Shown piece after piece: positions 2,893 to 58,984 of a DNA stretch of 64,000 nucleotides. Position 1 is the stretch's first letter, and each line of letters starts with the position of its first letter. Origin of the DNA: Eledone cirrhosa (lineage: Eukaryota); the NCBI GenBank assembly GCA_964016885.1, contig OZ024741.1, positions 320,540,001 through 320,604,000 on the forward strand, read 5' to 3'. The translations under genes were made by a program, and so were the position numbers. The notes beneath the pieces are model-generated. The model was given only the letters and a program-made list of their open reading frames with translations, was not told the origin of the DNA and searched no databases.

Positions 2893-2899
<7 letters not shown>

Positions 2900-3433
2900 A
2901 AGTTAAATAAAAGTCAAATGATTAAAATTTAGCTTCGTTTATTACTGCTATATATATTTCAGTGACAGCCATCTTTGGCTGTGAGCTCTTCAGGCAGTTT
3001 GAATTAGTATGGTATAGACAAGTACATATGTTGTTTAGGTGTATAATATTGTCAATACTCTGATATGCCCAGTTCCTTGTTGGGTTGTTAATTCACTGAG
3101 GAACTGGAGTCATATATGACTCCAGTTCCTCAGTGAATTAACAACCCAACAAGGAACTGGGCATATCAGAGTATTGACAATATTATACACCTAAACAACA
3201 TATGTACTTGTCTATACCATACTAATTCAAACTGCCTGAAGAGCTCACAGCCAAAGATGGCTGTCACTGAAATATATATAGCAGTAATAAACGAAGCTAA
3301 ATTTTAATCATTTGACTTTTATTTAACTTTATTTTACACTACTCCGGAGTAACCAAACCAACCTGCGCACTTCGTCGAGTGCTCCAGACTGCATACTGAG
3401 GTGTTGGTATACAACCAACATAAACTCAAAATC
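2893..3433 (+). mobile_element. Fold-back PLE 3' end: 444 bp palindrome plus ~100 bp tail in (TA)n
   Basis: 2893-3114 is the reverse complement of 3115-3336 with no spacer; HHR in each arm; (TA)n on both flanks. Confidence 0.85.
3231..3285 (+). ncRNA. Minimal type I hammerhead ribozyme (mirror copy 2944-2998, minus)
   Basis: ACTGC-CTGAAGA-stem II (ACAGCC/GGCTGT)-GAAA-TATAT-ATA^-GCAGT. Confidence 0.8.
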
Positions 3434-3491: not shown

Positions 3492-4552
3492 TGTTGAGTG
3501 AGATGGTTACCAGTCAGAGTTTACCTTTAAACTATCTCTGTTATTGTATTAATATTTTACTCTTGATTGGCCAGAGGTGTTTATTTCCAGGTACCTTATA
3601 AATTTAACTTTCCGTATTTATTACTGTTGTGCGATATTGTGGTTTTTATTGGTTGTAACTTCTCTGTTTTTTAGCCTAAGAAAAAATATATATATGCCTA
3701 TGTATATAATTATATGCATACATTTATTTTTTAAAATTAATTGAGTTCTTTACACGAGGAATTGATATTAGTTTTGAAATAACTAATTAACCCGCGTGTG
3801 TTTTATATTTTACTCTTAATTCGGCCGGGGATTTACATTCCCATTTGCCCTTTAAAGCATAACTTTCCGTATTTACTACGGTTACGAGATGATGTTTCTT
3901 ATTCAGGTACAACCTCTGATTTTAGCCTAAGAAAATATCTATATGCGGGTGTAATTTATACACGCATATATTTATTTTTTTAATTCCAATTGAGTTCTTA
4001 ACACGTTGGATTGATAATGTTTTCGAAAAAACTGATTAACCCGCGTGTATATTATTTTTTTTCCTCCTTTCCTGGATCGTAGTTGTCTCCCCTTCCCGCT
4101 TAGTGACGCTATAATACTTCCTCAGTCAAAAACTGCTGGAATTTCAAATTTGCCGGTCATTCGATGCGGGAAGGAGCAACTTAACAGACACGATTTTTAA
4201 CTGTGGTAAGAAATGTTTTTCTTATATCAAAGTTTAATGGGCATCCACTGATGATTTATAAGCACCCACCTAAATATATTCTTACATGAATGTATATTAG
4301 GCTTCTACATAAACTGGAAATATTCTCCGAATTTGTAGAAAACTTATAATGAAACAATTGTTTGGAAAGAGAGATATATTTTAACTTTAATTATATCTCA
4401 TAAAATAATACAACTGGCTTTTCCACATAATACATATTGTTAGCACCCAAACACTTAAATTGGGTTTACATTAAAATATAACCTAATGTTTGTTGAGTGA
4501 GATGGTTACCAGTCAGAGTTTAGCTTTAAACTATCTCTGTTATTGTATTAAT
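3487..4552 (+). mobile_element. Non-coding ~999 bp unit with 67 bp terminal redundancy and HHR (retrozyme-like)
   Basis: 3487-3553 repeated at 4486-4552; (TA)n on both sides; no long ORF; HHR at 4244-4366. Confidence 0.7.
4244..4366 (+). ncRNA. Hammerhead ribozyme with long stem II insertion
   Basis: TCCA-CTGATGA-TTTATAAG...CTTATAAT-GAAA-CAATT-GTT^-TGGA; palindromic loop CAATTG. Confidence 0.7.
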
Positions 4553-5240: not shown

Positions 5241-5678
5241 AATCGCAATTGCAATTGCCCTGTTAAAAATAAATGTTCTCTCAACAACCATTGTCTTGAA
5301 AAAAACTTAATCTACGAATGTAAAGTTATAACTGACACCAATTCCTTTACCTATTTTGGCTCCACTTCCACCTCCTTTAAAGCTCGTCTTTATAATCATC
5401 ATTCGTCTTTTAAATACCAACTTAAAAGAACCAACACGGCACTCTCAGAACTCATATAGTCCTTGAAAGACAAAAATATTAACTATAACATCTCTTGGAA
5501 GAAGGTTTGTTCTGCTTCTACATACTTGAACAGTTCTCTATCCAAGACATGCAATCTCTGTTTATGTGAAAAATTTACCATTATATCTAATTTAGATTCT
5601 ATAATAAATAGACGCACTGACTTGTTTTCTCTCTGCTTGCATAAATTCCACAGAACATTCCATAAAGTATACAGCTAA
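5241..5678 (+). pseudogene. PLE Zn-linker plus GIY-YIG endonuclease remnant
   Basis: Manual translation CNCPVKNKCSLNNHCLEKNLIYEC...YFGSTSTSFKARLYNH...ELI*SLKDK...CNLCLCEK...CLHK; homologous to the C-terminus of the 9357 ORF; one in-frame TAG. Confidence 0.85.
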
Positions 5679-7998: not shown

Positions 7999-8058
<60 letters not shown>

Positions 8059-8149
8059 CGAAGGAAATGTGGTAAGGAACCAGGTGGACCATAACGCACC
8101 AAAGTACTCAATACTTGAGGTAGTAGAGTGGGTAATAGGAACCAGTAAG

Positions 8150-8243
8150 ACCCCGACAGCTGAGCTCAAGCCGTTTCGACGGCTAATTCTGGACTAAATG
8201 AAAATTTATCCTGGTATTTAAATAGCCGATCTTCTCAAGGGGT
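8150..8243 (-). ncRNA. Type I hammerhead ribozyme, U3-A8 core variant (array copy 1)
   Basis: Minus strand ACCCC-TTGAGAA-GATCGGCTA...TAGCCGTC-GAAA-CGGCT-TGAGCTC-AGCT-GTC^-GGGGT. Confidence 0.8.
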
Positions 8244-9356
8244 AATTCCATATATGGTCAAAGTGATTGTCAAAAATCAGTAGTAATTCTGTGGTTGCAA
8301 ATTAGTAGGGGAGATGGTGGCTAAACCTGCCAGTAGGAGAAAGAGGGGAGGGGTGGAGTAGACCCAATCAAGCGTTGGTAGTGCCAGCTACAGCTGGGCA
8401 TGAGGTCAAAGAAGATACAGGGGAGGGGGAGGGGGAGGAAGTCGGAACGGTAGGTAGAACAATGGGGGGTAGAAATAGGAAAGAAAAAAAAAAAAAATAC
8501 TGAGAGTGAAGAAAGGCAAATAAGTGTAAAGAAAAGTAAAGTAAATTAAATTCTACGACCTAGGTGTCAGGCTATTGTTAGGCGAGAATAAAATAAAGAA
8601 AGAAAGAAAGAAGTAAAAAAATAAATAAATGAATAAATAAGGAAATAAGTAAGAGAACTAGGTGGGACGGTTAAGGCAAGGACCCTTTTAAGAGGTATAA
8701 GTACGTAAATGATACGGTGACGGGTCAACAAAAGGGGCCAAAATACTAAAGAGACTACCACGAAATAAACAATAAAGGTTTCCATCCCGGGCCAGCAACG
8801 ACCCAGTGCAGCAAAGTGAACTTGTACGAGATAATAATTCTGAGTCCCGAGAAAAATATATACTAATGCTAACTCTAAAAGATCTAAAACAAGCTACATG
8901 AAAGTTCGTACGAAATAAAGGTAGAATACGGAGAAATAAATTCAGAATCCACCCCGCCCAGAAGAAGAGCGAAGCAAGAAATACTGAAACGAAAAAATAA
9001 GGCATGTGCCACTAAGAAATATAGAGGGCACAGAGAATAGTGGGAGCGGTCGGAAAAAGGGGGAAAGTATCCGGGGTCTAAGCCAGCTGCTATAAAGGGC
9101 GGAGTCCGCCAAATCTATCAAAGACTAGGGGAGGGGGGGGGGGGGGGTTACTAAGGCTACATGGGGCCAAAGGGCAGCCTCTGGTGGGCGAGAAAAGACG
9201 CCGACAAAGGAGAAGAGCTGGGGTAGAAGGACAAAGGGGAGAGGGGGGAAGGAAATAAAGGAAGCGATAAAAGAATACAAAGAAGATCTTACGTCTTCCT
9301 TGGCAAGCAGGGGTTACCTATTGCAAAATCGGCAACTGGGGTGTTATAGCCCTAGT

Positions 9357-11510
9357 CTACCCCCCCGGGTCATTATGGGGTTTGAGGGCGAGGTAAGTCC
9401 TACGCAATCTATGTTTACATGCAGTAACCAGTTCATCTTTCTTGTTTAGGAGTTGGTCCGTCGAAAACAGCATTTGTAAAGTTTCCTCCGAGCATAAATT
9501 GCACGGACGGCGTCCTCCCGTGTAAGAATTGGCTCTGGACAGTAATCTCCAAGTGAGATCATAGGTGATGTTGTTGTCCTTGAGGTCCCATATGTGGCCC
9601 GAAAGTGTAGTGGCGTGACGCCGGGCCGGGTTTCGGAAGGTATGTCTATGTTGGTATAGCCGGGTCTTGAAGTCACATGCGGTAAGTCCTATATAGGCTT
9701 TGATGGAGGTATCCGTCCTCACGTTGCACTGGTAGATCACATTACGGTCTCTGCATCTATTGTCGAGTGGGCAAATAGATCTATCCGGGCAGTTACACCT
9801 CCTGGTCGGTTCTCCACTGCTAATTAGGTTATTTCTGCCATCGGGGTTGAGTTTTTTGTTGTTAGAGGAGACGATGTTTTGTGCGAAGTTTGGTGTAGTG
9901 CTGTAAGAGAGTTTGATGGTATTTTTGTTAATTATGTTGTGGTAGCGGTGTTGTAATGGGAAGTGTTTTTCAATGAGCCTAAAGAATAGTTTCCCGATGG
10001 GAGTAGTCACCTCTGCGTTGTGGGGAGGATTGAACCATGTTACATTGCGTGAGCGGCGGTGTCTCCTGCTGGTTCCGCTAATGGGAGCTGGACAGTAGGA
10101 TATTTCCTCCCGGAAACCACTCCGCTTGAGGGCCTGGTTGTAATAAGGCGCATGTTCATCGAATATCCGCTCATTAGCTGACAAACGGGATATGCGGGGG
10201 GAGATGTTTTTGACCAGGTTGTTTGTGATGTTCCTAGGATGGTTTGATCGGCGGTGGATGTAGTGCAGATTGTCATTTGGTTTCCTGTATGGGTAGTACA
10301 GGTCGTTTTCGAGGTCGAGGGTTACGTCCAGGAAGTTTACTCGGGTCAGGGACGTTTGTAGGGTTATTTTAAATCCCCAGTCGCGGAAGAATCTGATTAA
10401 TTGTTTCCGGACCCGATCTGTACTACTGGGGTTGTACCCTTTAAGGGTAAGGAGCCCATCATCACGGTACAATCCACCACCGAATGCAGGAAACATATCA
10501 GTGAGTTTGGCTATTAGGAATAATCCTATAAGATCAGTGACCTCCGCCGAATCCGTGGCGCCCATGCTGACGTCGAAGGGTGAGTCGGGAGCTCTTTTTA
10601 TCCATTTAGAGTCGTCAAAGAGTAAGACTGTCTTCCTGGCGTGGAGGATGATTTTTCTTTCCTGGTCGGTGATGGGCACGAGTGTTTCGGCGAAGTCCAA
10701 GGCGGCAGTAAGTAGCGGTAAGGTGATAGAAGCATAGTAGCTCTCTATGTCGAACTGTATGAATTTAGTTTCTCGTTTATCCTCCATATTGCTGAACCAG
10801 GAGATTACTTCCTGGGTGTTGATCCATAGGCTAAGTCGGGTGTGTTGCTTGACTTTTGGTATCACGCGGTCTAGGATTATTTTGCTGATTCTCCCTATGT
10901 CGGACTTCGTTGGGTTAATAAGCCTGATGGAGGGTTTACGGTCAAAATCGGATTTATGGTCCTTCAGTGTGAAGTATGGTGTCCGTGGGTCTAGAGGTTC
11001 CGTGCGGTCGGCGACCCCGAGGCTGGAGGTGATTTGTTGTCCATCTCGATTTATGTCCTCGATACAAGAGTGGTTGGCCTTTTTATAGGTGGAGTTTAGG
11101 CTGCTCCTGATCAGTGTGTGGTATCTGTCAGGGTTGACAAAGTATAGGTTCCCAGTTTTATCCGAATGCACCATGATGTCATTTGTGTTATCATACTCTG
11201 TTAAGTTGCTACGGAGTTTTTGTAGGAATCGGTTGTGTCTGGGTTTAAATTTAATGTTCTTGACCAGTTGGAAGAGGTCATTCTCGAAGGGTGCGAGCAA
11301 GGGGTTCAGGGGCGGAGATTTGTAGGTAATAAATCCGAATCTCTCCTTGGTGCCGAAGTCTTGGTTGTCGCAATATCTGTCATAGAAAAAAGTTCTCCAT
11401 CTAAGTCTTTTCGCAAATAGATCAATTTTTTGCGTGAGCATCCGAAGGTAAAGTTTTTTCGGTGGGATTGGGATGTTCTTGGTAGAGAAGTCAATGTTGT
11501 GTTTTCGCAT
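9357..11510 (-). CDS. Intact PLE polyprotein: reverse transcriptase + Cys-rich linker + GIY-YIG endonuclease (717 aa from first ATG; frame open to 11657)
   Basis: RT motifs FDIESYY, SMGATDSAEVTDLIG, GLYRDDGL, NFLDVTL; CNC-x5-CPL-x3-C linker; VIYQC...YIG GIY-YIG; C-terminal CNLC...CKH. Confidence 0.93.
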   Translation of the reverse strand: MRKHNIDFSTKNIPIPPKKLYLRMLTQKIDLFAKRLRWRTFFYDRYCDNQDFGTKERFGFITYKSPPLNPLLAPFENDLFQLVKNIKFKPRHNRFLQKLRSNLTEYDNTNDIMVHSDKTGNLYFVNPDRYHTLIRSSLNSTYKKANHSCIEDINRDGQQITSSLGVADRTEPLDPRTPYFTLKDHKSDFDRKPSIRLINPTKSDIGRISKIILDRVIPKVKQHTRLSLWINTQEVISWFSNMEDKRETKFIQFDIESYYASITLPLLTAALDFAETLVPITDQERKIILHARKTVLLFDDSKWIKRAPDSPFDVSMGATDSAEVTDLIGLFLIAKLTDMFPAFGGGLYRDDGLLTLKGYNPSSTDRVRKQLIRFFRDWGFKITLQTSLTRVNFLDVTLDLENDLYYPYRKPNDNLHYIHRRSNHPRNITNNLVKNISPRISRLSANERIFDEHAPYYNQALKRSGFREEISYCPAPISGTSRRHRRSRNVTWFNPPHNAEVTTPIGKLFFRLIEKHFPLQHRYHNIINKNTIKLSYSTTPNFAQNIVSSNNKKLNPDGRNNLISSGEPTRRCNCPDRSICPLDNRCRDRNVIYQCNVRTDTSIKAYIGLTACDFKTRLYQHRHTFRNPARRHATTLSGHIWDLKDNNITYDLTWRLLSRANSYTGGRRPCNLCSEETLQMLFSTDQLLNKKDELVTACKHRLRRTYLALKPHNDPGG

Positions 11511-11695
11511 GGTGCGGGTGAAATGAATTGAGCTTAGCGGAAAAGTCTGGATGCGGCGTGGTAGGGTCGGAAAGTGCTCTACTACGGGAGTAGGAGCTAG
11601 ATAACGAAGGAAATGTGGTAAGGAACCAGGTGGACCATAACGCACCAAAGTACTCAATACTTGAGGTAGTAGAGTGGGTAATAGGAACCAGTAAG

Positions 11696-11789
11696 ACCCC
11701 GACAGCTGAGCTCAAGCCGTTTCGACGGCTAATTCTGGACTAAATGAAAATTTATCCTGGTATTTAAATAGCCGATCTTCTCAAGGGGT
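11696..11789 (-). ncRNA. Hammerhead ribozyme U3-A8 variant (copy 2)
   Basis: Same sequence as 8150-8243. Confidence 0.8.
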
Positions 11790-12900
11790 AATTCCATATA
11801 TGGTCAAAGTGATTGTCAAAAATCAGTAGTAATTCTGTGGTTGCAAATTAGTAGGGGAGATGGTGGCTAAACCTGCCAGTAGGAGAAAGAGGGGAGGGGG
11901 TGGAGTAGACCCAATCAAGCGTTGGTAGTACCAGCTACAGCTGGGCATGAGGTCAAAGAAGATACAGGGGAGGGGGAGGGGGTGGAAGTCGGAACGGTAG
12001 GTAGAACAATGGGGGGTACAAATAGGAAAGAAAAAAAAAAAAAATACTGAGAGTGAAGAAAGGCAAATAAGTGTAAAGAAAAGTAAAGTAAATTAAATTC
12101 TACGACCTAGGTGTCAGGCTATTGTTAGGCGAGAATAAAATAAAGAAAGAAAGAAAGAAGTAAAAAAATAAATAAATGAATAAATAAGGAAATAAGTAAG
12201 AGAACTAGGTGGGACGGTTAAGGCAAGGACCCTTTTAAGAGGTATAAGTACGTAAATGATACGGTGACGGGTCAACAAAAGGGGCCAAAATACTAAAGAG
12301 ACTACCACGAAATAAACAATAAAGGTTTCCATCCCGGGCCAGCAACGACCCAGTGCAGCAAAGTGAACTTGTACGAGATAATAATTCTGAGTCCCGAGAA
12401 AAATATATACTAATGCTAACTCTAAAAGATCTAAAACAAGCTACATGAAAGTTCGTACGAAATAAAGGTAGAATACGGAGAAATAAATTCAGAATCCACC
12501 CCGCCCAGAAGAAAAGCGAAGCAAGAAATACTGAAACGAAAAAATAAGGCATGTGCCACTAAGAAATATAGAGGGCACAGAGAATAGTGGGAGCGGTCGG
12601 AAAAAGGGGGAAAGTATCCGGGGTCTAAGCCAGCTGCTATAAAGGGCGGAGTCCGCCAAATCTATCAAAGACTAGGGGAGGGGGGGTGGGGGTACTAAGG
12701 CTACATGGGGCCAAAGGGCAGCCTCGGGTGGGCGAGAAAAGACGCCGACAAAGGAGAAGAGCTGGGGTAGAAGGACAAAGGGGAGAGGGGGGAAGGAAAT
12801 AAAGGAAGCGATAAAAGAATACAAAGAAGATCTTACGTCTTCCTTGGCAAGCAGGGGTTACCTATTGCAAAATCGGCAACTGGGGTGTTATAGCCCTAGT

Positions 12901-15054
12901 CTACCCCCCCGGGTCATTATGGGGTTTGAGGGCGAGGTAAGTCCTACGCAATCTATGTTTACATGCAGTAACCAGTTCATCTTTCTTGTTTAGGAGTTGG
13001 TCCGTCGAAAACAGCATTTGTAAAGTTTCCTCCGAGCATAAATTGCACGGACGGCGTCCTCCCGTGTAAGAATTGGCTCTGGACAGTAATCTCCAAGTGA
13101 GATCATAGGTGATGTTGTTGTCCTTGAGGTCCCATATGTGGCCCGAAAGTGTAGTGGCGTGACGCCGGGCCGGGTTTCGGAAGGTATGTCTATGTTGGTA
13201 TAGCCGGGTCTTGAAGTCACATGCGGTAAGTCCTATATAGGCTTTGTTGGAGGTATCCGTCCTCACGTTGCACTGGTAGATCACATTACGGTCTCTGCAT
13301 CTATTGTCGAGTGGGCAAATAGATCTATCCGGGCAGTTACACCTCCTGGTCGGTTCTCCACTGCTAATTAGGTTATTTCTGCCATCGGGGTTGAGTTTTT
13401 TGTTGTTAGAGGAGACGATGTTTTGTGCGAAGTTTGGTGTAGTGCTGTAAGAGAGTTTGATGGTATTTTTGTTAATTATGTTGTGGTAGCGGTGTTGTAA
13501 TGGGAAGTGTTTTTCAATGAGCCTAAAGAATAGTTTCCCGATGGGAGTAGTCACCTATGCGTTGTGGGGAGGATTGAACCATGTTACATTGCGTGAGCGG
13601 CGGTGTCTCCTGCTGGTTCCGCTAATGGGAGCTGGACAGTAGGATATTTCCTCCCGGAAACCACTCCGCTTGAGGGCCTGGTTGTAATAAGGCGCATGTT
13701 CATCGAATATCCGCTCATTAGCTGACAAACGGGATATGCGGGGGGAGATGTTTTTGACCAGGTTGTTTGTGATGTTCCTAGGATGGTTTGATCGGCGGTG
13801 GATGTAGTGCAGATTGTCATTTGGTTTCCTGTATGGGTAGTACAGGTCGTTTTCGAGGTCGAGGGTTACGTCCAGGAAGTTTACTCGGGTCAGGGACGTT
13901 TGTAGGGTTATTTTAAATCCCCAGTCGCGGAAGAATCTGATTAATTGTTTCCGGACCCGATCTGTACTACTGGGGTTGTACCCTTTAAGGGTAAGGAGCC
14001 CATCATCACGGTACAATCCACCACCGAATGCAGGAAACATATCAGTGAGTTTGGCTATTAGGAATAATCCTATAAGATCAGTGACCTCCGCCGAATCCGT
14101 GGCGCCCATGCTGACGTCGAAGGGTGAGTCGGGAGCTCTTTTTATCCATTTAGAGTCGTCAAAGAGTAAGACTGTCTTCCTGGCGTGGAGGATGATTTTT
14201 CTTTCCTGGTCGGTGATGGGCACGAGTGTTTCGGCGAAGTCCAAGGCGGCAGTAAGTAGCGGTAAGGTGATAGAAGCATAGTAGCTCTCTATGTCGAACT
14301 GTATGAATTTAGTTTCTCGTTTATCCTCCATATTGCTGAACCAGGAGATTACTTCCTGGGTGTTGATCCATAGGCTAAGTCGGGTGTGTTGCTTGACTTT
14401 TGGTATCACGCGGTCTAGGATTATTTTGCTGATTCTCCCTATGTCGGACTTCGTTGGGTTAATAAGCCTGATGGAGGGTTTACGGTCAAAATCGGATTTA
14501 TGGTCCTTCAGTGTGAAGTATGGTGTCCGTGGGTCTAGAGGTTCCGTGCGGTCGGCGACCCCGAGGCTGGAGGTGATTTGTTGTCCATCTCGATTTATGT
14601 CCTCGATACAAGAGTGGTTGGCCTTTTTATAGGTGGAGTTTAGGCTGCTCCTGATCAGTGTGTGGTATCTGTCAGGGTTGACAAAGTATAGGTTCCCAGT
14701 TTTATCCGAATGCACCATGATGTCATTTGTGTTATCATACTCTGTTAAGTTGCTACGGAGTTTTTGTAGGAATCGGTTGTGTCTGGGTTTAAATTTAATG
14801 TTCTTGACCAGTTGGAAGAGGTCATTCTCGAAGGGTGCGAGCAAGGGGTTCAGGGGCGGAGATTTGTAGGTAATAAATCCGAATCTCTCCTTGGTGCCGA
14901 AGTCTTGGTTGTCGCAATATCTGTCATAGAAAAAAGTTCTCCATCTAAGTCTTTTCGCAAATAGATCAATTTTTTGCGTGAGCATCCGAAGGTAAAGTTT
15001 TTTCGGTGGGATTGGGATGTTCTTGGTAGAGAAGTCAATGTTGTGTTTTCGCAT
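12901..15054 (-). pseudogene. PLE ORF copy 2 with nonsense codon
   Basis: Matches copy 1 except GAG>TAG at 13555-13557 and TSIK>TSNK. Confidence 0.9.
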
Positions 15055-15239
15055 GGTGCGGGTGAAATGAATTGAGCTTAGCGGAAAAGTCTGGATGCGG
15101 CGTGGTAGGGTCGGAAAGTGCTCTACTACGGGAGTAGGAGCTAGATAACGAAGGAAATGTGGTAAGGAACCAGGTGGACCATAACGCACCAAAGTACTCA
15201 ATACTTGAGGTAGTAGAGTGGGTAATAGGAACCAGTAAG

Positions 15240-15333
15240 ACCCCGACAGCTGAGCTCAAGCCGTTTCGACGGCTAATTCTGGACTAAATGAAAATTTATC
15301 CTGGTATTTAAATAGCCGATCTTCTCAAGGGGT
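15240..15333 (-). ncRNA. Hammerhead ribozyme U3-A8 variant (copy 3)
   Basis: Same sequence as 8150-8243. Confidence 0.8.
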
Positions 15334-16444
15334 AATTCCATATATGGTCAAAGTGATTGTCAAAAATCAGTAGTAATTCTGTGGTTGCAAATTAGTAGGG
15401 GAGATGGTGGCTAAACCTGCCAGTAGGAGAAAGAGGGGAGGGGGTGGAGTAGACCCAATCAAGCGTTGGTAGTACCAGCTACAGCTGGGCATGAGGTCAA
15501 AGAAGATACAGGGGAGGGGGAGGGGGTGGAAGTCGGAACGGTAGGTAGAACAATGGGGGGTACAAATAGGAAAGAAAAAAAAAAAAAATACTGAGAGTGA
15601 AGAAAGGCAAATAAGTGTAAAGAAAAGTAAAGTAAATTAAATTCTACGACCTAGGTGTCAGGCTATTGTTAGGCGAGAATAAAATAAAGAAAGAAAGAAA
15701 GAAGTAAAAAAATAAATAAATGAATAAATAAGGAAATAAGTAAGAGAACTAGGTGGGACGGTTAAGGCAAGGACCCTTTTAAGAGGTATAAGTACGTAAA
15801 TGATACGGTGACGGGTCAACAAAAGGGGCCAAAATACTAAAGAGACTACCACGAAATAAACAATAAAGGTTTCCATCCCGGGCCAGCAACGACCCAGTGC
15901 AGCAAAGTGAACTTGTACGAGATAATAATTCTGAGTCCCGAGAAAAATATATACTAATGCTAACTCTAAAAGATCTAAAACAAGCTACATGAAAGTTCGT
16001 ACGAAATAAAGGTAGAATACGGAGAAATAAATTCAGAATCCACCCCGCCCAGAAGAAAAGCGAAGCAAGAAATACTGAAACGAAAAAATAAGGCATGTGC
16101 CACTAAGAAATATAGAGGGCACAGAGAATAGTGGGAGCGGTCGGAAAAAGGGGGAAAGTATCCGGGGTCTAAGCCAGCTGCTATAAAGGGCGGAGTCCGC
16201 CAAATCTATCAAAGACTAGGGGAGGGGGGGTGGGGGTACTAAGGCTACATGGGGCCAAAGGGCAGCCTCGGGTGGGCGAGAAAAGACGCCGACAAAGGAG
16301 AAGAGCTGGGGTAGAAGGACAAAGGGGAGAGGGGGGAAGGAAATAAAGGAAGCGATAAAAGAATACAAAGAAGATCTTACGTCTTCCTTGGCAAGCAGGG
16401 GTTACCTATTGCAAAATCGGCAACTGGGGTGTTATAGCCCTAGT

Positions 16445-18598
16445 CTACCCCCCCGGGTCATTATGGGGTTTGAGGGCGAGGTAAGTCCTACGCAATCTAT
16501 GTTTACATGCAGTAACCAGTTCATCTTTCTTGTTTAGGAGTTGGTCCGTCGAAAACAGCATTTGTAAAGTTTCCTCCGAGCATAAATTGCACGGACGGCG
16601 TCCTCCCGTGTAAGAATTGGCTCTGGACAGTAATCTCCAAGTGAGATCATAGGTGATGTTGTTGTCCTTGAGGTCCCATATGTGGCCCGAAAGTGTAGTG
16701 GCGTGACGCCGGGCCGGGTTTCGGAAGGTATGTCTATGTTGGTATAGCCGGGTCTTGAAGTCACATGCGGTAAGTCCTATATAGGCTTTGTTGGAGGTAT
16801 CCGTCCTCACGTTGCACTGGTAGATCACATTACGGTCTCTGCATCTATTGTCGAGTGGGCAAATAGATCTATCCGGGCAGTTACACCTCCTGGTCGGTTC
16901 TCCACTGCTAATTAGGTTATTTCTGCCATCGGGGTTGAGTTTTTTGTTGTTAGAGGAGACGATGTTTTGTGCGAAGTTTGGTGTAGTGCTGTAAGAGAGT
17001 TTGATGGTATTTTTGTTAATTATGTTGTGGTAGCGGTGTTGTAATGGGAAGTGTTTTTCAATGAGCCTAAAGAATAGTTTCCCGATGGGAGTAGTCACCT
17101 ATGCGTTGTGGGGAGGATTGAACCATGTTACATTGCGTGAGCGGCGGTGTCTCCTGCTGGTTCCGCTAATGGGAGCTGGACAGTAGGATATTTCCTCCCG
17201 GAAACCACTCCGCTTGAGGGCCTGGTTGTAATAAGGCGCATGTTCATCGAATATCCGCTCATTAGCTGACAAACGGGATATGCGGGGGGAGATGTTTTTG
17301 ACCAGGTTGTTTGTGATGTTCCTAGGATGGTTTGATCGGCGGTGGATGTAGTGCAGATTGTCATTTGGTTTCCTGTATGGGTAGTACAGGTCGTTTTCGA
17401 GGTCGAGGGTTACGTCCAGGAAGTTTACTCGGGTCAGGGACGTTTGTAGGGTTATTTTAAATCCCCAGTCGCGGAAGAATCTGATTAATTGTTTCCGGAC
17501 CCGATCTGTACTACTGGGGTTGTACCCTTTAAGGGTAAGGAGCCCATCATCACGGTACAATCCACCACCGAATGCAGGAAACATATCAGTGAGTTTGGCT
17601 ATTAGGAATAATCCTATAAGATCAGTGACCTCCGCCGAATCCGTGGCGCCCATGCTGACGTCGAAGGGTGAGTCGGGAGCTCTTTTTATCCATTTAGAGT
17701 CGTCAAAGAGTAAGACTGTCTTCCTGGCGTGGAGGATGATTTTTCTTTCCTGGTCGGTGATGGGCACGAGTGTTTCGGCGAAGTCCAAGGCGGCAGTAAG
17801 TAGCGGTAAGGTGATAGAAGCATAGTAGCTCTCTATGTCGAACTGTATGAATTTAGTTTCTCGTTTATCCTCCATATTGCTGAACCAGGAGATTACTTCC
17901 TGGGTGTTGATCCATAGGCTAAGTCGGGTGTGTTGCTTGACTTTTGGTATCACGCGGTCTAGGATTATTTTGCTGATTCTCCCTATGTCGGACTTCGTTG
18001 GGTTAATAAGCCTGATGGAGGGTTTACGGTCAAAATCGGATTTATGGTCCTTCAGTGTGAAGTATGGTGTCCGTGGGTCTAGAGGTTCCGTGCGGTCGGC
18101 GACCCCGAGGCTGGAGGTGATTTGTTGTCCATCTCGATTTATGTCCTCGATACAAGAGTGGTTGGCCTTTTTATAGGTGGAGTTTAGGCTGCTCCTGATC
18201 AGTGTGTGGTATCTGTCAGGGTTGACAAAGTATAGGTTCCCAGTTTTATCCGAATGCACCATGATGTCATTTGTGTTATCATACTCTGTTAAGTTGCTAC
18301 GGAGTTTTTGTAGGAATCGGTTGTGTCTGGGTTTAAATTTAATGTTCTTGACCAGTTGGAAGAGGTCATTCTCGAAGGGTGCGAGCAAGGGGTTCAGGGG
18401 CGGAGATTTGTAGGTAATAAATCCGAATCTCTCCTTGGTGCCGAAGTCTTGGTTGTCGCAATATCTGTCATAGAAAAAAGTTCTCCATCTAAGTCTTTTC
18501 GCAAATAGATCAATTTTTTGCGTGAGCATCCGAAGGTAAAGTTTTTTCGGTGGGATTGGGATGTTCTTGGTAGAGAAGTCAATGTTGTGTTTTCGCAT
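16445..18598 (-). pseudogene. PLE ORF copy 3 with the same nonsense codon
   Basis: TAG at 17099-17101, same codon as copy 2. Confidence 0.9.
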
Positions 18599-18783
18599 GG
18601 TGCGGGTGAAATGAATTGAGCTTAGCGGAAAAGTCTGGATGCGGCGTGGTAGGGTCGGAAAGTGCTCTACTACGGGAGTAGGAGCTAGATAACGAAGGAA
18701 ATGTGGTAAGGAACCAGGTGGACCATAACGCACCAAAGTACTCAATACTTGAGGTAGTAGAGTGGGTAATAGGAACCAGTAAG

Positions 18784-18877
18784 ACCCCGACAGCTGAGCT
18801 CAAGCCGTTTCGACGGCTAATTCTGGACTAAATGAAAATTTATCCTGGTATTTAAATAGCCGATCTTCTCAAGGGGT
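18784..18877 (-). ncRNA. Hammerhead ribozyme U3-A8 variant (copy 4)
   Basis: Same sequence as 8150-8243. Confidence 0.8.
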
Positions 18878-19988
18878 AATTCCATATATGGTCAAAGTGA
18901 TTGTCAAAAATCAGTAGTAATTCTGTGGTTGCAAATTAGTAGGGGAGATGGTGGCTAAACCTGCCAGTAGGAGAAAGAGGGGAGGGGGTGGAGTAGACCC
19001 AATCAAGCGTTGGTAGTACCAGCTACAGCTGGGCATGAGGTCAAAGAAGATACAGGGGAGGGGGAGGGGGTGGAAGTCGGAACGGTAGGTAGAACAATGG
19101 GGGGTACAAATAGGAAAGAAAAAAAAAAAAAATACTGAGAGTGAAGAAAGGCAAATAAGTGTAAAGAAAAGTAAAGTAAATTAAATTCTACGACCTAGGT
19201 GTCAGGCTATTGTTAGGCGAGAATAAAATAAAGAAAGAAAGAAAGAAGTAAAAAAATAAATAAATGAATAAATAAGGAAATAAGTAAGAGAACTAGGTGG
19301 GACGGTTAAGGCAAGGACCCTTTTAAGAGGTATAAGTACGTAAATGATACGGTGACGGGTCAACAAAAGGGGCCAAAATACTAAAGAGACTACCACGAAA
19401 TAAACAATAAAGGTTTCCATCCCGGGCCAGCAACGACCCAGTGCAGCAAAGTGAACTTGTACGAGATAATAATTCTGAGTCCCGAGAAAAATATATACTA
19501 ATGCTAACTCTAAAAGATCTAAAACAAGCTACATGAAAGTTCGTACGAAATAAAGGTAGAATACGGAGAAATAAATTCAGAATCCACCCCGCCCAGAAGA
19601 AAAGCGAAGCAAGAAATACTGAAACGAAAAAATAAGGCATGTGCCACTAAGAAATATAGAGGGCACAGAGAATAGTGGGAGCGGTCGGAAAAAGGGGGAA
19701 AGTATCCGGGGTCTAAGCCAGCTGCTATAAAGGGCGGAGTCCGCCAAATCTATCAAAGACTAGGGGAGGGGGGGTGGGGGTACTAAGGCTACATGGGGCC
19801 AAAGGGCAGCCTCGGGTGGGCGAGAAAAGACGCCGACAAAGGAGAAGAGCTGGGGTAGAAGGACAAAGGGGAGAGGGGGGAAGGAAATAAAGGAAGCGAT
19901 AAAAGAATACAAAGAAGATCTTACGTCTTCCTTGGCAAGCAGGGGTTACCTATTGCAAAATCGGCAACTGGGGTGTTATAGCCCTAGT

Positions 19989-20555
19989 CTACCCCCCCGG
20001 GTCATTATGGGGTTTGAGGGCGAGGTAAGTCCTACGCAATCTATGTTTACATGCAGTAACCAGTTCATCTTTCTTGTTTAGGAGTTGGTCCGTCGAAAAC
20101 AGCATTTGTAAAGTTTCCTCCGAGCATAAATTGCACGGACGGCGTCCTCCCGTGTAAGAATTGGCTCTGGACAGTAATCTCCAAGTGAGATCATAGGTGA
20201 TGTTGTTGTCCTTGAGGTCCCATATGTGGCCCGAAAGTGTAGTGGCGTGACGCCGGGCCGGGTTTCGGAAGGTATGTCTATGTTGGTATAGCCGGGTCTT
20301 GAAGTCACATGCGGTAAGTCCTATATAGGCTTTGTTGGAGGTATCCGTCCTCACGTTGCACTGGTAGATCACATTACGGTCTCTGCATCTATTGTCGAGT
20401 GGGCAAATAGATCTATCCGGGCAGTTACACCTCCTGGTCGGTTCTCCACTGCTAATTAGGTTATTTCTGCCATCGGGGTTGAGTTTTTTGTTGTTAGAGG
20501 AGACGATGTTTTGTGCGAAGTTTGGTGTAGTGCTGTAAGAGAGTTTGATGGTATT
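19989..20555 (-). pseudogene. PLE ORF copy 4, 5'-truncated (linker and endonuclease part only)
   Basis: Homology stops at 20555; 5 nt filler AGTTA, then the inverted arm. Confidence 0.9.
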
Positions 20556-20560
20556 AGTTA

Positions 20561-21985
20561 ATCACCTATGATCTCACTTGGAGATTACTGTCCAGAGCCA
20601 ATTCTTACACGGGAGGACGCCGTCCGTGCAATTTATGCTCGGAGGAAACTTTACAAATGCTGTTTTCGACGGACCAACTCCTAAACAAGAAAGATGAACT
20701 GGTTACTGCATGTAAACATAGATTGCGTAGGACTTACCTCGCCCTCAAACCCCATAATGACCCGGGGGGGTAGACTAGGGCTATAACACCCCAGTTGCTG
20801 ATTTTGCAGTAGGTAACCCCTGCTTGCCAAGGAAGACGTAAGATCTTCTTTGTATTCTTTTATCGCTTCCTTTATTTCCTTCCCCCCTCTCCCCTTTGTC
20901 CTTCTACCCCAGCTCTTCTCCTTTGTCGGCGTCTTTTCTCGCCCACCCGAGGCTGCCCTTTGGCCCCATGTAGCCTTAGTACCCTCACCCCCCCTCCCCT
21001 AGTCTTTGATAGATTTGGCGGACTCCGCCCTTTATAGCAGCTGGCTTAGACCCTGGATACTTTCCCCCTTTTTCCGACCGCTCCCACTATTCTCTGTGCC
21101 CTCTATATTTCTTAGTGGCACATGCCTTATTTTTTCGTTTCAGTATTTCTTGCTTCGCTTTTCTTCTGGGCGGGGTGGATTCTGAATTTATTTCTCCGTA
21201 TTCTACCTTTATTTCGTACGAACTTTCATGTAGCTTGTTTTAGATCTTTTAGAGTTAGCATTAGTATATATTTTTCTCGGGACTCAGAATTATTATCTCG
21301 TACAAGTTCACTTTGCTGCACTGGGTCGTTGCTGGCCCGGGATGGAAACCTTTATTGTTTATTTCGTGGTAGTCTCTTTAGTATTTTGGCCCCTTTTGTT
21401 GACCCGTCACCGTATCATTTACGTACTTATACCTCTTAAAAGGGTCCTTGCCTTAACCGTCCCACCTAGTTCTCTTACTTATTTCCTTATTTATTCATTT
21501 ATTTATTTTTTTACTTCTTTCTTTCTTTCTTTATTTTATTCTCGCCTAACAATAGCCTGACACCTAGGTCGTAGAATTTAATTTACTTTACTTTTCTTTA
21601 CACTTATTTGCCTTTCTTCACTCTCAGTATTTTTTTTTTTTCTTTCCTATTTCTACCCCCCATTGTTCTACCTACCGTTCCGACTTCCTCCCCCTCCCCC
21701 TCCCCTGTATCTTCTTTGACCTCATGCCCAGCTGTAGCTGGCACTACCAACGCTTGATTGGGTCTACTCCACCCCTCCCCTCTTTCTCCTACTGGCAGGT
21801 TTAGCCACCATCTCCCCTACTAATTTGCAACCACAGAATTACAACTGATTTTTGACAATCACTTTGACCATATATGGAATTACCCCTTGAGAAGATCGGC
21901 TATTTAAATACCAGGATAAATTTTCATTTAGTCCAGAATTAGCCGTCGAAACGGCTTGAGCTCAGCTGCCGGGGTCTTACTGGTT

Positions 21986-21990
<5 letters not shown>
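20561..21990 (+). repeat. Inverted ORF end + pLTR (~1.43 kb inverted repeat of 18769-20201)
   Basis: Reverse complement of the adjacent unit with a 359 bp spacer; ends CCTAT|(TA)n. Confidence 0.92.
21882..21975 (+). ncRNA. Hammerhead in inverted arm, cleavage triplet mutated GTC>GCC
   Basis: C at 21969 replaces U16.1. Confidence 0.75.
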
Positions 21991-22046
<56 letters not shown>

Positions 22047-22050
<4 letters not shown>

Positions 22051-22984
22051 TAATATTTGATGAACATTTACATCTTATAGTTGCAATTGACTAATAAGAT
22101 CGCTAGAGTGAAAAATCTTAATTCTACAACATAAGGTCTGCCTGTACGATCTAGAAAATAATAAATCAATACTCACAGACTCATATGGGCAAAAAGCCTT
22201 GGTACCTAGACACGTTTAAAATTCAAAATACAAACTTTTTCCGCAGATCGGTCAGAACTTCAAATTTCAAACATGTTTCACAAAGGATGGTATAATAGTA
22301 AAATAATTAACTAATTAGCAGTGAGTTAATCAACTTTTTCTGTGTTTATCAATAGGTACCCAGATAAAAATAAAATAACTCTACCTCAGAAAAATATCTA
22401 AGGTCTGGTTAGCGTAGCGAAAATACACGAGGTTTTGCACACGGCTTATTCCAGTCCTCTAACGTCCCACACATAGTGCTAGAAATAACAGCCGTTTATA
22501 TGGGATTACAAAATTCAGCTCACCTGGGGGAGCAGTGATAAAAAGCTTAGAGTTTAGACTCAAAGAGGTCATTTACAATCATTTCAGCTCTAGGAATCGC
22601 TTCTGAGCAGTATAAATTAATATTTGATGAACATTTACATGTTATAGTTGCAATTGACTAATAAGATCGCTAGAGTGAAAAATCTTAATTCTACAACATA
22701 AGGTCTGCCTGTACGATCTAGAAAATAATAAATCAATACTCACAGACTCATATGGGCAAAAAGCCTTGGTACCTAGACACGTTTAAAATTCAAAACACAA
22801 ACTTTTTCCGCAGATCGGTCAGAACTTCAAATTTCAAACATGTTTCACAAAGGATGGTATAATAGTAAAATAATTAACTAATTAGCAGTGAGTTAATCAA
22901 CTTTTTCTTTGTTTATCAATAGGTACCCAGATAAAAATAAAATAACTCTACCTCAGAAAAATATCTAAGGTCTGGTTAGCGTAG
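22047..22984 (-). mobile_element. Non-coding ~567 bp tandem unit (1.65 copies) with HHR-like motif
   Basis: 22047-22417 repeated at 22614-22984; minus strand TTGATAA-ACAAAG...CTTTGT-GAAA-CAT-GTT at 22835-22921 and 22268-22354; stem I weak. Confidence 0.55.
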
Positions 22985-25900
22985 TTTTACAATAGATTAA
23001 AAGCACTCTACAGTGAAGTTTTCTGGGGTTATTAATATTATTCAGAATATTAATAAATGAAGACATTCACATAATCAAAATATATGTTTTATTATATATA
23101 TTTCGAAGGTACTGTGTTGTTTTTTCAGTACGTCCTTGTCAGATAAAATAGATGAATTGATGTATGACATACCTCAACGGTCATGATAGTTCAATTCCAG
23201 TATTGGCAGTGATTTATTACAACAAATCTCAACATTTATATACCACAAATAATAACATGATAAATTTAAATTTAAAGAAGAAGAGGACGTGGAGCGAGAT
23301 AGGGATTTAAGGAGGAGGTGAATATGAGGAGATGCAAGAAAAAAATTAAATAAATACATACATACATAAATATTCAAATGAGTAAATAGATGTATTAGGG
23401 AAGAAATATATAAAAAGACGAAAAAAAAGGAAGAAAGAGAGAAGAAGAAAGAAGAAATAACGACAAAAAAGAAAGAAATGAGGTGGGTAGATAGACAGAC
23501 CGTTGTTTTCAAATATTAAGTCAAATTGAGGCAACCAATTAAATAACATGAATTTTTTAATATCTTTTGTATTAGGTTTAAGCTAATTATACTTATATAT
23601 TATATAAAAATTAAACAAAAATTATTTTCTATAGCCGTCAGATACATAGTTTAAATAAGTAATACATTCACCAAATATTTTGTTACAACTTTTAAAAACA
23701 TTTTTATCTTTAAATAATTATTAAGTGTATTAGGATATTTATTAAAACACATATATCACATCAGTACATATTTTTTTTTATATTAAGATCATTTATTATC
23801 TGAGTTATTCTATTTTCTTTATAAAATCATTGATTGTCATTTAATTACAGGATTAAGTTGCAGTTATATTTATTTTCAAAAGTTTTATTATTTCATATTT
23901 TCGTCAGTAATTACTTATTATTATATATAGTTTCCCTTTAAGGATTTTCATATATTATTAAACTGCATAATTCAAGTTAATATATAATTTAGCAAGCTAT
24001 TCAGACAGAACAAAATTATTTACGAAGAATATAAGCAAAGGAAGATAACTCGTTCATCATATGTGAACATTTAAAACATTTAAGTACTTTGAAACCAGAA
24101 GATATTTCAAACCACAAACCAAGAAATTTCTAGTTAAACAATGACCTTTCTAAATCCAAACAAAGGATACTGAGACTCATAATGAAATTAATTTACTAGA
24201 TAAAAATGACTAAAAGAAAAAAAAAAAAAAATTTTCAGTAAGGCAAAAAGTTATATATCTAATTTTTTTAAAAATTATTAATAGTCAATATTTTTTAGAA
24301 ATTTGTATAATGCTTGGAAACTCCTACCAGACTTATGTTGACAGCTGCTAAATAACTCATTTTTCTTATTAATGTGAAATGTAGCGTCTTGCTCAATAGA
24401 GTCTCTAGATTGCAAAGATTGCAATTTGGTGAAATGGATGCGTTCTGGTAGGAATCAGATATCTTTAACTTACTCCAAGAAATTTAGTATTTGATATTTT
24501 TGTCCTTCAAAGACCATATTAATTGTGAGAGTGATGTTGAAAATTTTTTTATCTGGATTAGAAAAAGAATGTTTATGATTGTAAAAGCGATATTTAAACT
24601 TAGATGAAGTGGCACCAATGTAGTTATATGTATTATTATTATTTGTCTTAATGGTATATTCTTGTCAAGGCAGTTATTTTGTAAGGGACATTCAGATTTT
24701 CTTCTACAGTTACAATTCATCTCTATGTTATTTCTATAACTTATTCTATTCGTATTATTACTATTATTTAGAGGTGTTCTACTATTATTCGTATTTAAAC
24801 TAGTATTATTGTTATTCCAATTAACTATTGTATTATTATTATTATTGTTATTATCGCTAATTATATGTTGGTTCAAATTAAGGTTTTTACTATATATTTT
24901 TGCTATATTTTGAGCAATATTCATAGTTGTTGAATAAGAGAGTGTGTCTATTGAAGATAGAGTAATACTTATGTAATCTAGGGAAACATTTATCCAAGGC
25001 TTTAAAAAATAAATGTGTTATATGTGTTTTAATAGTTAAAGATGCTGGCGGAGCATACACAATTATAGATCTAGTCCTTATTTTTTTCCCCGATTTATTC
25101 CTCAAGTTGTTGTTATTACAGTCATTTCTATTATTAGCAGTTATTATGAAAACTGCGATTATAATTAATATTATTTTTTTCCACATGCTCAATATTATTT
25201 TTATATCCTGCTTTATGTAACGCTTCGTTATAATATACAGCTTTACTATTAAATATGGATCTATTAGCAGATAGTCTGGATATTCATTGTTGGACACTGT
25301 TGACTATTGCATTCTTAACACTTTTAGGATGATTAGAATAAAAACTAACATAATTTAAGTTTTCATTGAGTTTATGGAAGGGGTAATAGAGGCCTGTGTT
25401 CAAATTAAGAATTACATCTAAAAATTTAACTATTTTATTGTTATTTTCTACTTCTAATTTCAGGTCATAATTTTTAAAGAATTCTATAATTACTTTCTTT
25501 ACTCTATTTAATTCACTATTATTATGTTTAACCACAGTAAATAATATGTCGTCTCTATATAAACCAGCAGTAATCTCCGGCAGTTTTCTCTTTATCATAT
25601 TAAGGATGAAAATTCCCACAAGATCGGTAACTTGCGCCGAATCACACGAGCTCATAGTAATGTAAAAGTTGTTATGCCTATCAGAACTAGTCCAAAAATC
25701 ATTATTAAAATCTATCAAGGTTCGCCTAGCTGTTAAAATGATATTTATCTCATCACTAGATAGATCCGTGTGCTTATATGCATATGAAAGCGCCTTATTT
25801 AGTAGGTTACGAGTTATTGAGGAGTAATAACTCGCTATAAAAGGAATAATAACTCGCTATAAAAGGAGTAATAACTCGCAATATTTTGTTGTAACAAAAT

Positions 25901-34083: not shown

Positions 34084-34424
34084 TGCATGTGCGTGTGTGT
34101 GTGTGTTTGCGTGTGTGTGTGCGTGCGTGTGTGCATACGTGCGTATATGTGTTTGTCTCTGTGTGTGTGCGATTAATTACTGCAAAAACGGTCAAGCAAA
34201 TAATACAGTTCAATGAAGAATTATATTAGTTTAACGCTTGATATATTATGAAAAAAATATTAACGTTTCGGAGACTGGCCCGTTCTGAAGAAGAAATAGA
34301 GAAATAGAAAGATAAAGAGTGAGAAGAGGAAGAAATGGGGAAACTTGTTTTGGGGAAAAGCACTTGCGTGTTCAGTCAGCCATTTTTTGAGAAAAACTAT
34401 ATCTAAAACCACACACAAACACAC

Positions 34425-34480
<56 letters not shown>

Positions 34481-34599
34481 TATCTTCTTTTTGTGTGTTA
34501 ACAATATAATACAATTATAATAGATTGAAGTGAAAACCAACAGATGCGTGTGGTTTTATTGGCAACATAGATAGATAGATAGATGGATGGATAGATATA

Positions 34600-37437: not shown

Positions 37438-37440
<3 letters not shown>
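34600..37440 (-). mobile_element. 5'-truncated, frameshifted Tx1/L1-type LINE ORF2 in (GATA)n
   Basis: SDHKLV...GPGYWKLN (APE C-terminus), KSPGLDGLPYEFY, NFRPITLLN, IRQGCPLS, AYADDV, GGLGMP, C-terminal Cys/His (ETVAHAFIHC); AATAAA 3' end abutting (TATC)n. Confidence 0.9.
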
Positions 37441-37486
<46 letters not shown>

Positions 37487-37487
<1 letters not shown>

Positions 37488-37544
37488 TTCTTTATTTACC
37501 ATAAAGGCATAAAAAGAAGGGACAAATACAAAGGGGGAGTTTAC
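37487..37544 (-). mobile_element. Short 3'-end fragment of the same Tx1-type family
   Basis: Similar to 34600-34658; (GATA)n on both sides. Confidence 0.75.
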
Positions 37545-52500: not shown

Positions 52501-53886
52501 TTAGGGATTTCAGCCGAAATGTAGCTGTCTATGGCATTTGAATTGATTTTATCAGCTAACCAAATCAAATGTGAGCTTGTGGCAGCCCTCGTTTTTGCCA
52601 TTCGGCGGTGAACATGTCACATTTTACAGCTCCAAATACCTGACCTTTTTTATTAAAGCCATGAGTTTAACCAGTTTCAGTCTGAACACTCTGGCAATGA
52701 GGTCATGTCTGTTCGAATAATTTTTGCCCAGGAAAAAGTTCACGGGTTACATTCCGATTCATATGTCTATCGCATTAAACTGTTATATGAAGTGTTATTC
52801 TGCGGGTTATTATTTGCAATAAGCCGATTGAAAATGCCCCAGAATAGCCGTATGTCAAAACGGAACGCTCCACTGCAGTGTTGTCATATAGGGAGTGAAG
52901 AGCGACAGAGAGAGTAAAGCAGTTAAATTATAGAGAGGGGGAATATACGGAACGGTCCATTTGATCATATACATTGTTTCTCTCTCGGCAGTGTTGTCAT
53001 ATAGGGAGTGAAGAGCGACAGAGAGTTTGTTGTCTTATAAATTCATCTGTTGCATTTGAATATTTGTTATTTGATGTAAAATGTAACTGTGTAAAATGTA
53101 ACGTTGAGAGAGCAGTATGTATTTAGTGTTATCGGCTTTTTAAATTTTGATATTTGATATATGAGTGTCGTTATGACTGTTTGTTGTTGTATAAAATGAT
53201 GTGTTGCTTAGTTATCAAAGTTCTTTTCGCGTTCCCGAACGAATAGGGCGAATGATCTATTATATACAGAAAGAAGAGCGACGGATAGAGTGAAGCTAGT
53301 GTTAAACCTCGAAGCATGAAGAGAGTAAAGCAGTTAAATTATAGAGAGGGGGAATAATTTATTGTAGAGAGAGGGAAGAGCGACGGAGGGAGTAAAGCTA
53401 TGGTTGTTGTGTTGCTTCGGTTTCAAAGTTTGTGTCGCGTTCCTTCAAAAGAAGTTTTGTCCTTGTTCTAAATTGTAATGGTGATAGAGTAGTAGACGGA
53501 GGCAGTAACCTTTTAAAGAGAGTTGCAGAGGAGATTGAGGGGGGGGGGGGTAGAGAGAGTGATTAACCTTTTAAAGAGAGTTGCAGAGGAGATTGAGAGT
53601 GGAGTAGAGGAAAGGATGAACCTTTTAAAGAGAGTTGCAACATGTATGTAGTTTCATATATTTTTGATGGTAGTAGTGAGAGGAATGAAGCGTGTAAGAG
53701 AGAGGGTTACAGCATGTATTTAGTTTTATCGATTTGTTTTCATAGAAGCAGGAAACTTTTGGCAAATATAATTACGCGTTGACCTGCCCTGGTAAATTTG
53801 GAGCACATTAGAAAAAAATCATCAAAATCGGTAGAGAAATGTGGAAATGCATATAAATCATACACACACACAGACAGACATCTACC

Positions 53887-58371: not shown

Positions 58372-58374
<3 letters not shown>

Positions 58375-58832: not shown

Positions 58833-58843
58833 ATATATATATA

Positions 58844-58981: not shown

Positions 58982-58984
<3 letters not shown>
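58844..58984 (+). mobile_element. 3'-terminal fragment related to the array PLE
   Basis: Diverged homologue of the reverse complement of 8058-8197; same terminus CCTTCGTTA|(TA)n. Confidence 0.85.

Follow-up and report, generated by a model that had tools for sequence, protein, structure and literature searches.

Penelope-like elements (PLEs) of the Hydra clade, among them Hydra-1_Obim, have just one open reading frame (ORF) for a reverse transcriptase (RT) with a C-terminal endonuclease, share RWK-type, DKT, CxCX5C, CxxC and CxH protein motifs, insert into (TA)n, and carry a hammerhead ribozyme near the 3' end with the end of the element lying beyond the cut (PMC8557442). The same features are found in a tandem array of Eledone cirrhosa that lies in a stretch of 64,000 nt (GCA_964016885.1, contig OZ024741.1, positions 320,540,001-320,604,000 of the forward strand), referred to here as the window and used for all coordinates. 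Positions in the family are numbered from the hammerhead cut, with +1 as the first base past it (window 11700, minus strand) and negative numbers upstream. The listed Hydra families measure at most 3045 bp, whereas the Eledone unit measures 3544 bp, and all Hydra hammerheads listed there combine CUGANGA in the core with a loop II that is short, whereas that of the Eledone element has a U3-A8 core and a branched insertion in loop II that contains an edge of the genomic copies at -45 (PMC8557442). The tail of the Eledone element is 80 nt long, with more than 20,000 exact ends in the genome, compared with the 30-40 nt described for PLEs.

The Poseidon element PAc of the green anole is a second parallel, for which internal initiation past the hammerhead has been published (PMC11167929). 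Two internal RT start sites beyond the cut define the genomic tail of PAc, its protein cuts and extends both strands of an AT-rich target, and a dimer is predicted; the Eledone family resembles it in these respects, and a protein dimer is presumed here as well. In contrast, the PAc starts lie within the ORF, have no homology to the target and do not differ between strands (PMC11167929), whereas the Eledone start sites lie in the leader and have 3-4 nt (UAU) in common with the TA target, and nearly every insertion uses each of them once. Type I hammerheads also occur in the pseudo-long terminal repeats (pseudo-LTRs) of other PLEs, with a U3-A8 core in the Cercyon elements of Schistosoma and with opposite-strand pairs 100-700 bp apart, as in the Eledone element, and ligation of the cut ends into circles was proposed in 2014 as a route to more-than-unit copying (PMC4209133, available portion). 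That portion states that there is no in vivo evidence for such circles, a hypothesis on which the Eledone breakpoints bear.

Animal non-LTR retrozymes similarly consist of tandem units with a type I hammerhead each, and the available portions of their descriptions report circular RNA and ligation by RtcB in vitro (PMC7229834; bioRxiv 10.64898/2026.07.22.740005). Retrozymes are non-coding and shorter than 1 kb, whereas the Eledone unit is 3.5 kb, encodes an RT-endonuclease and is known from DNA alone. Penelope of Drosophila virilis shares with the Eledone element a partial tandem with an inverted 5' copy and a transcription start in the pseudo-LTR, but belongs to a different clade and has an intron in its 5' untranslated region (UTR); the available portion of its description gives no known mechanism for regeneration of the pseudo-LTR (PMC2377424).

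Two fixed ends and three classes of 5' breakpoint

Exact patterns joined to TA give 20,620 genomic ends at +97 and 6,612 at +17, both counts being lower bounds, and the reversed-pattern controls for the two ends had no match genome-wide. A further sample, examined through its raw reads, also has loose TA ends at the two sites (5945 and 2290). Mapping covered 143 arms in 110 stretches, drawn without duplicates from the top of the list of places on contig C1; most insertions there are about 200 bp long and head to head, with one arm per site. An inverted +97 partner accompanies 43 of 55 +17 arms and a +17 partner none of them, and among the 88 +97 arms, 54 are paired with a +17 arm and none with another +97 arm; the remaining arms are one-armed or unclassified. 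The same allele at -4 is present in both arms of 40 of 41 short insertions. Both priming sites contain UAU, which is able to pair with a TA primer. One +97 and one +17 end per insertion, together with the shared alleles, point to twin priming on one RNA, which we regard as highly probable: two reverse transcriptases would prime from the cut (TA)n target at +97 and +17 of the same molecule. Use of one start site per strand would explain why the tail is often found at one end only. The long insertion L216, which carries two +17 ends, is an exception that speaks against this account.

Alternatively, the first complementary DNA (cDNA) might have folded back or primed its own copying to give the inverted arm, comparable to the self-priming model proposed for rotifer Penelope elements. 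Such copying would account equally well for alleles common to the two arms and for their matched breakpoints, and head-to-head palindromes are interpreted in this way in the available portion of PMC3846280. However, the +17 arm often extends further 5' than the +97 arm (L070, L086, L118 and L120; in L212 the arms reach -3272 from +17 and -976 from +97), which would need later deletions. Untemplated A or T between blunt ends, described below, fits the joining of two run-off cDNAs, and the two start sites and two extended strands of the Poseidon protein also favour separate priming (PMC11167929). Fold-back copying is considered very improbable.

The 5' breakpoints fall into three classes, at -45, at the cut and beyond. 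Ninety of the 101 arms reaching -34 stop by -45 and 11 go on, with no stop between -46 and -112. Counts of 20-mers in the genome drop 17-fold across this edge, from 37,635 to 2,219, the lower count being depressed by a subfamily variant. A genome search with 90 bp from upstream of the cut had no match, probably an effect of the skipping of very common words, and carries no weight. An older short copy of the family in the window (58841-58988, plus strand, 86% identity), which extends from about -45 to +97 between TA runs, has the same edge. The first-pass annotation of the window held that a genomic end about 97 nt past the cut forces priming on a multimer or a circle. Neither is required for most copies, since about 90% of the arms reaching -34 stop by -45, which is what a monomer with its start inside the ribozyme would produce; the template of the long copies does appear to have had no 5' end at the junction.

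The -45 position is the A of an initiator-like word in loop II of the hammerhead, 25 nt beyond a TATA-like word. In the array this A is 11745 (equivalents at 8199, 15289 and 18833), and the two words form a candidate core promoter at 11740..11770 on the minus strand. Position -45 is probably a transcription start inside the ribozyme loop. RNA that starts there cannot cut itself at its 5' end because the 5' half of the ribozyme is missing. Neither AATAAA nor ATTAAA is found in the 1200-nt 3' UTR. Three points count against a start at -45: the initiator-like word is present four times in the unit, a TATA-like word at -25 is nearer to the start than usual, and a cap-derived extra G at -46 is not clear (about 22 of 100, by eye), so that a block by protein or structure at -45 could also produce the edge.

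A smaller class of breakpoints lies at the hammerhead cut, where 132 loci have both arms with 1-6 nt in between. The filler is untemplated and neither arm passes the cut in 33 of the first 50 of these loci, with a single A or T in 19 (by eye), which scales to about 90 loci in which both arms end exactly at the cut. Of the 15 cut loci inspected, most pair a +97 with a +17 arm. A control position at -19 gave more loci than the cut site (519), but the first 50 were all joined through templated bases, mostly an internal palindrome, and none had an untemplated-filler joint. At the cut there are also blunt CCCCGGGG joints, 10 among the first 50, which were set aside because a CG overlap could explain them. 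The ends at the cut are consistent with the trace expected of run-off at a ribozyme-made 5' end, and some hammerhead cleavage in vivo is very likely on this evidence. The transcript cleavage predicted in the first-pass annotation is to this extent suggested by the genomic ends, although it would concern a minority of templates.

Template of the long insertions

The third class of breakpoint belongs to arms that continue past -45. Forty insertions with an arm past -57 were taken in list order, with six already-seen ones omitted, of which 13 are one-armed or interrupted. The other 27 have two arms; the partner arm is likewise long in 24 of them (one uncertain), stops early in two and at -34 to -45 in one; sampling by arm favours loci with two long arms about twofold. 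Among 30 loci picked on the start of the leader-ORF, irrespective of the junction, 4 stop at +20 to +55, 1 at -40 and 25 continue, so that a second pass stops at the -45 edge in 1 of 26 arms compared with 90 of 101 on the first pass (Fisher p 7e-17). Since the long arms are paired and pass -45 a second time, their template likely lacked that end, a state common to both arms. Passes within one array share locus-private alleles (600 low-complexity positions masked). A ligated monomer most simply accounts for this all-or-none passage. A circle is further favoured because the genome records the precursor class, whose 5' end lies at +1, and because RtcB circularises animal hammerhead monomers in vitro (PMC7229834, available portion). 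The proposal that a circle was the template of the long insertions is tentative, with odds slightly short of even. The circular-RNA retroelement put forward at first pass gains indirect support from the DNA ends of long copies, and the circular template itself was already a published hypothesis (PMC4209133, available portion).

Several observations weigh against the circle. The support for it comes entirely from DNA ends, and the 26 second passes are drawn from the copies most like the window array, three of them from the window array itself. A private allele of array D is confined to the first passes of its two arms, a pattern that suits a linear multimer better than a monomer circle. The U3-A8 core of the predicted ribozyme lacks covariation support in the Eledone cirrhosa family. 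The anole Poseidon element mainly uses uncut RNA as substrate, it still inserted when its ribozyme was mutated, and its RNA-seq reads had no ends at the cut (PMC11167929), whereas in the Eledone family DNA ends pile up there.

The long copies could instead have come from uncut linear multimers, produced by read-through of arrays or from host promoters. The -45 edge might then be a block by bound protein and folded RNA, and arrays would be renewed by unequal crossing-over. Uncut RNA is what the Poseidon protein mainly uses in vitro (PMC11167929), the allele pattern of array D would follow, and a competing hairpin can mask the GAAA core of the ribozyme. DNA-level duplication is also evident in arrays W, E, C and G and in the period-2 patterns of arrays A and B. 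However, a simple model of linear transcripts that start at -45 in donors of 1-5 units predicts second-pass stops in 33-100% of arms, against the 1 of 26 observed (p at most 4e-4; p 0.04 for 10-unit donors in the same model). Mid-ORF copies are mostly single, with 7 tandem groups in the first 100 listed matches (by eye), and the six two-armed arrays contain one first-pass-only shared allele. Uncut multimers are considered an unlikely source of the long copies.

End-to-end jumping on linear RNA might also produce tandems. A transcript from -45 to the next cut would begin and end with an identical stretch of 45 nt, comparable to the R region of LTR elements, and an RT at the 5' end could transfer to the 3' end through this repeat, with failed transfer giving short insertions and successful transfer giving tandems. 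This redundancy follows directly from the geometry of the transcript, and jumping would account for passes of one haplotype with a ligase being unnecessary. However, both arms would have to jump on every pass although about 89% of first passes fail, and success is all-or-none per insertion (24 of 27 with both arms long, 25 of 26 second passes). The 176 junction matches have no excess of added or lost bases at the cut, which disfavours sloppy jumps there, though not transfer inside the overlap. Jumping is considered quite unlikely.

The reading preferred here, which combines twin priming, a -45 start, a cut product, a circle and later expansion, is given a probability of about 45% as a whole. 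Transcription would start at -45 in the hammerhead loop, leaving the 5' ribozyme of the mRNA incomplete, and the next hammerhead downstream would make the 3' end of the mRNA. Priming on this RNA would run off at -45 and give the 200-bp head-to-head insertions that form the large majority. The product downstream of a cleavage would start at +1, and priming on it would give the arms that end at the cut, of the order of 1%. A product cut at both ends would be ligated into a 3544-nt circle, and priming on this circle, or possibly on another RNA that has no 5' end, would give long arms through every junction (about 6-8% of arms). Such long arms would rebuild the partial tandem required by the promoter. 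After insertion, DNA-level multiplication or homogenisation, or else the assembly, would have produced units 2-4 of the window array in their present form.

The element, its ribozyme and its locus

The protein of the element places it among described PLEs. Of 8000 scored candidates, 2050 are related to its 717-aa sequence at E up to 1e-20, with about 38-43% identity for those of full length, and motifs were aligned in 114 proteins (the query and 113 of 120 listed matches). YRDDG (query position 348) is present in 112 of the 114, and Y606-G608, R617, H621, E676 and N689 are at least 95% conserved. The RLRWR of the query at 35 corresponds to an RW[KR] pattern in 98 of the aligned proteins, DKT (117 of the query) is found in 108, the CxCX5C linker C572-C574-C580 in 107, the CxxC C670-C673 in 113 and the CxH C698-H700 in 109. 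None of the 114 has G[LF]K[FY] (GxKF/Y), and their alignment has neither a conserved cysteine pair between Y593 and Y606 nor a conserved CCHH. Neighbours in the ESM Atlas at 0.96-0.97 belong to clusters with GIY-YIG and RVT_1 in some members. No relevant match came from Pfam, which was scanned with the 717-aa protein and 12 of the aligned proteins, or from a search of PDB sequences with the 717-aa protein.

A single RT/GIY-YIG ORF, partial tandems, an inverted 5' copy and a tail at one end characterise the element as Penelope-like (EN+), and the RWK-type motif, DKT, CxCX5C, CxxC, CxH and (TA)n insertion as Hydra-type, an assignment based on protein motifs and target site. The predicted type I hammerhead of the element has a core and a long loop II unlike those of the listed Hydra hammerheads. 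The array is almost certainly a high-copy Penelope-like retrotransposon with Hydra-clade protein motifs. Hydra was absent from the clades proposed in the first-pass annotation (Penelope/Poseidon, Neptune and Naiad/Chlamys), and the motifs point away from that list. Naiad/Chlamys, an initial guess of the present analysis, is rejected on the C-terminal position of the endonuclease motifs and on DKT rather than DKA, and Penelope/Poseidon, Neptune and Nematis do not fit the absence of a CCHH zinc finger in the endonuclease and DKT rather than DKG. The description of the array as a young PLE is borne out. Full-length ORF matches in the examined stretches number 27, of which 15 from 7 loci are open, and the family is young. 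Synonymous and non-synonymous changes number 4 and 3 when shared and 23 and 30 (plus 4 stops) when private, small numbers from 16 copies at 8 loci. Older broken relatives of the protein, about 29-53% identical (tblastn), lie at 47030-49309 (minus strand, with a frameshift near 48710), 24397-25838 (minus) and 5244-5660 (plus), and subfamilies with the same hammerhead and tail but other sequence upstream of about -115 occur at L080, L115, L131, L133 and L149.

The hammerhead is of type I; its core is U3-A8, its stem II is long and branched, and its loop III is a palindrome. All four junctions match a type I descriptor that allows U3-A8, which places the cuts after 8155, 11701, 15245 and 18789; the same descriptor has two further matches in the window and 0-1 match in each of 20 shuffles. 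The canonical CUGANGA is absent from the array hammerhead, and Rfam gave no match at E up to 0.1. The minimum free energy fold is the hammerhead fold, yet it is no more stable than shuffles (z +0.55), and folding also gives an alternative hairpin able to hide the GAAA core. A C3-A8 mismatch occurs in two diverged copies among 176 hammerhead matches, and a C3-G8 form in none. The hammerhead proposed at first pass is a plausible one, predicted from sequence through its descriptor match. Two palindromic (TA)n insertions elsewhere in the window, at 2893-3433 and 58372-58832, carry hammerhead-like CUGANGA motifs in each arm, and just one of the two arms has an additional 85-100 nt; this one-tail geometry suggests other, probably Penelope-like, families.

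Self-BLAST of the window gives direct repeats at 8052-20555 with a period of 3544-3546 and an inverted 1430-bp copy at 20561-21990. On the minus strand the array has three complete units followed by 1.86 kb of another (3.53 units of 3544 bp in all), between (TA)n target microsatellites at 8006..8057 and 21988-22047. The long arm from +97 is 12.5 kb and begins with unit 1 (8058..11603, 3546 bp), its first pass, which has 12 differences from unit 2; position 8058 is its +97 priming end, followed by the 80-nt tail (8058..8137, +18 to +97 past the cut) and the terminal hammerhead copy (8150..8243, cut 8155/8154). The intact 717-aa ORF for the RT and C-terminal GIY-YIG-type endonuclease with Hydra-clade motifs is at 9357..11510 on the minus strand. 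Its 190-nt leader from cut to ATG (11511..11700, minus) contains both priming sites and an upstream ORF of 13 codons (11597-11638, minus) that starts at +63 and ends just beyond the +97 priming site. The second hammerhead, with GUC at the cut 11701/11700, is at 11696..11789 (minus).

The remaining minus-strand features are unit 2 (11604..15147; ORF 15054-12901 with a stop at codon 500), the hammerhead that joins it to unit 3 (15240-15333), unit 3 (15148..18691), which is the same as unit 2 including the stop, the hammerhead upstream of unit 3 (18784-18877), and the partial unit 4 or pseudo-LTR (18692..20555), which is 5'-truncated within the ORF and matches unit 2 fully over its length. A 5-nt filler (20556..20560) forms the head-to-head joint with the inverted second arm of 1.43 kb (20561..21987, plus strand), whose hammerhead (21882-21975, plus) has GCC at the cleavage triplet and whose outer end, located 17 nt beyond the cut at the +17 priming site, is another end of 3' type. 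The layout reported at first pass is confirmed in its approximately 3.5 near-identical units of 3544 bp with one hammerhead each, single intact ORF, inverted 5' end, (TA)n on both sides, leader of about 190 nt and genomic end about 97 nt beyond the cut. Four sequencing runs contained no record bridging the locus-specific inversion joint at the right junction, where coverage is sparse.

Units 2, 3 and 4 have no difference over 8.9 kb, whereas unit 1 and the inverted arm each carry private changes of their own. The codon-500 stop allele is found only in units 2 and 3 among the first 100 of 294 listed matches. Because of this identity and of the shared derived alleles, including a stop absent from unit 1, the 3.5 units probably grew after insertion, at the DNA level or in assembly. 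The near-identity of the units noted at first pass cannot serve as proof of rolling-circle copying, since unit 1 lacks the derived changes of units 2-4. Sharing like that of window units 2-4 is seen in arrays E, C and G, and arrays A and B alternate with period two. Inflation by the assembly alone, with a real insertion in which one unit was written repeatedly as units 2-4, would fit the same identity and the restriction of the stop allele, but multi-unit arrays A, D, F, H and I have units with private changes, and recent unequal crossing-over would look the same; such inflation is somewhat unlikely.

Several further repeats were seen. A 374-bp direct duplication (22044-22417 and 22611-22984, 99%) in a multi-copy repeat adjoins the insertion. 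At the five-unit array L172-L173 (G000:C1:91.489-91.493 Mb), the head-to-head joint contains about 64 tandem copies of one 55-bp piece of the ORF, a minisatellite born there through RT stuttering or later expansion. A 573-aa ORF at 50880-52601 (minus) with a PIF1-like helicase match (E 9e-21) is probably a Helitron fragment. Fragments at 34200-37500 (minus) had no Pfam match, and we take them to resemble ORF2 of L1/Tx1-type long interspersed nuclear elements.

Implications for Penelope-like elements

The role of the hammerhead in PLEs and the rebuilding of pseudo-LTRs are open questions in the literature. The element described here is of a known kind, in an unusual and very abundant variant, and its value lies in the breakpoints of the family: tens of thousands of young ends, three template classes and exact coordinates (+97, +17, +1 and -45). 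Open-licence PubMed Central and bioRxiv texts (PMC11167929 and PMC4209133 without their supplements) yielded no previous description of insertions that end at the cut of a PLE hammerhead, or of two start sites that are strictly paired. Many short palindromic (TA)n-flanked repeats that resemble miniature inverted-repeat transposable elements may be abortive Penelope insertions. The hammerhead could even act as a switch, with a promoter in its loop, an mRNA end made by its cleavage and a 3.5-kb circle copied by two RTs so that the tandem promoter is rebuilt. This idea is doubtful at present, but if it is true, the genome would record three RNA forms, capped, cut and circular. The breakpoints turn the question of the circle into a precise experiment, and if the circle is true, the element would be a self-encoding circular-RNA retroelement and a link between retrozymes and autonomous retrotransposons.

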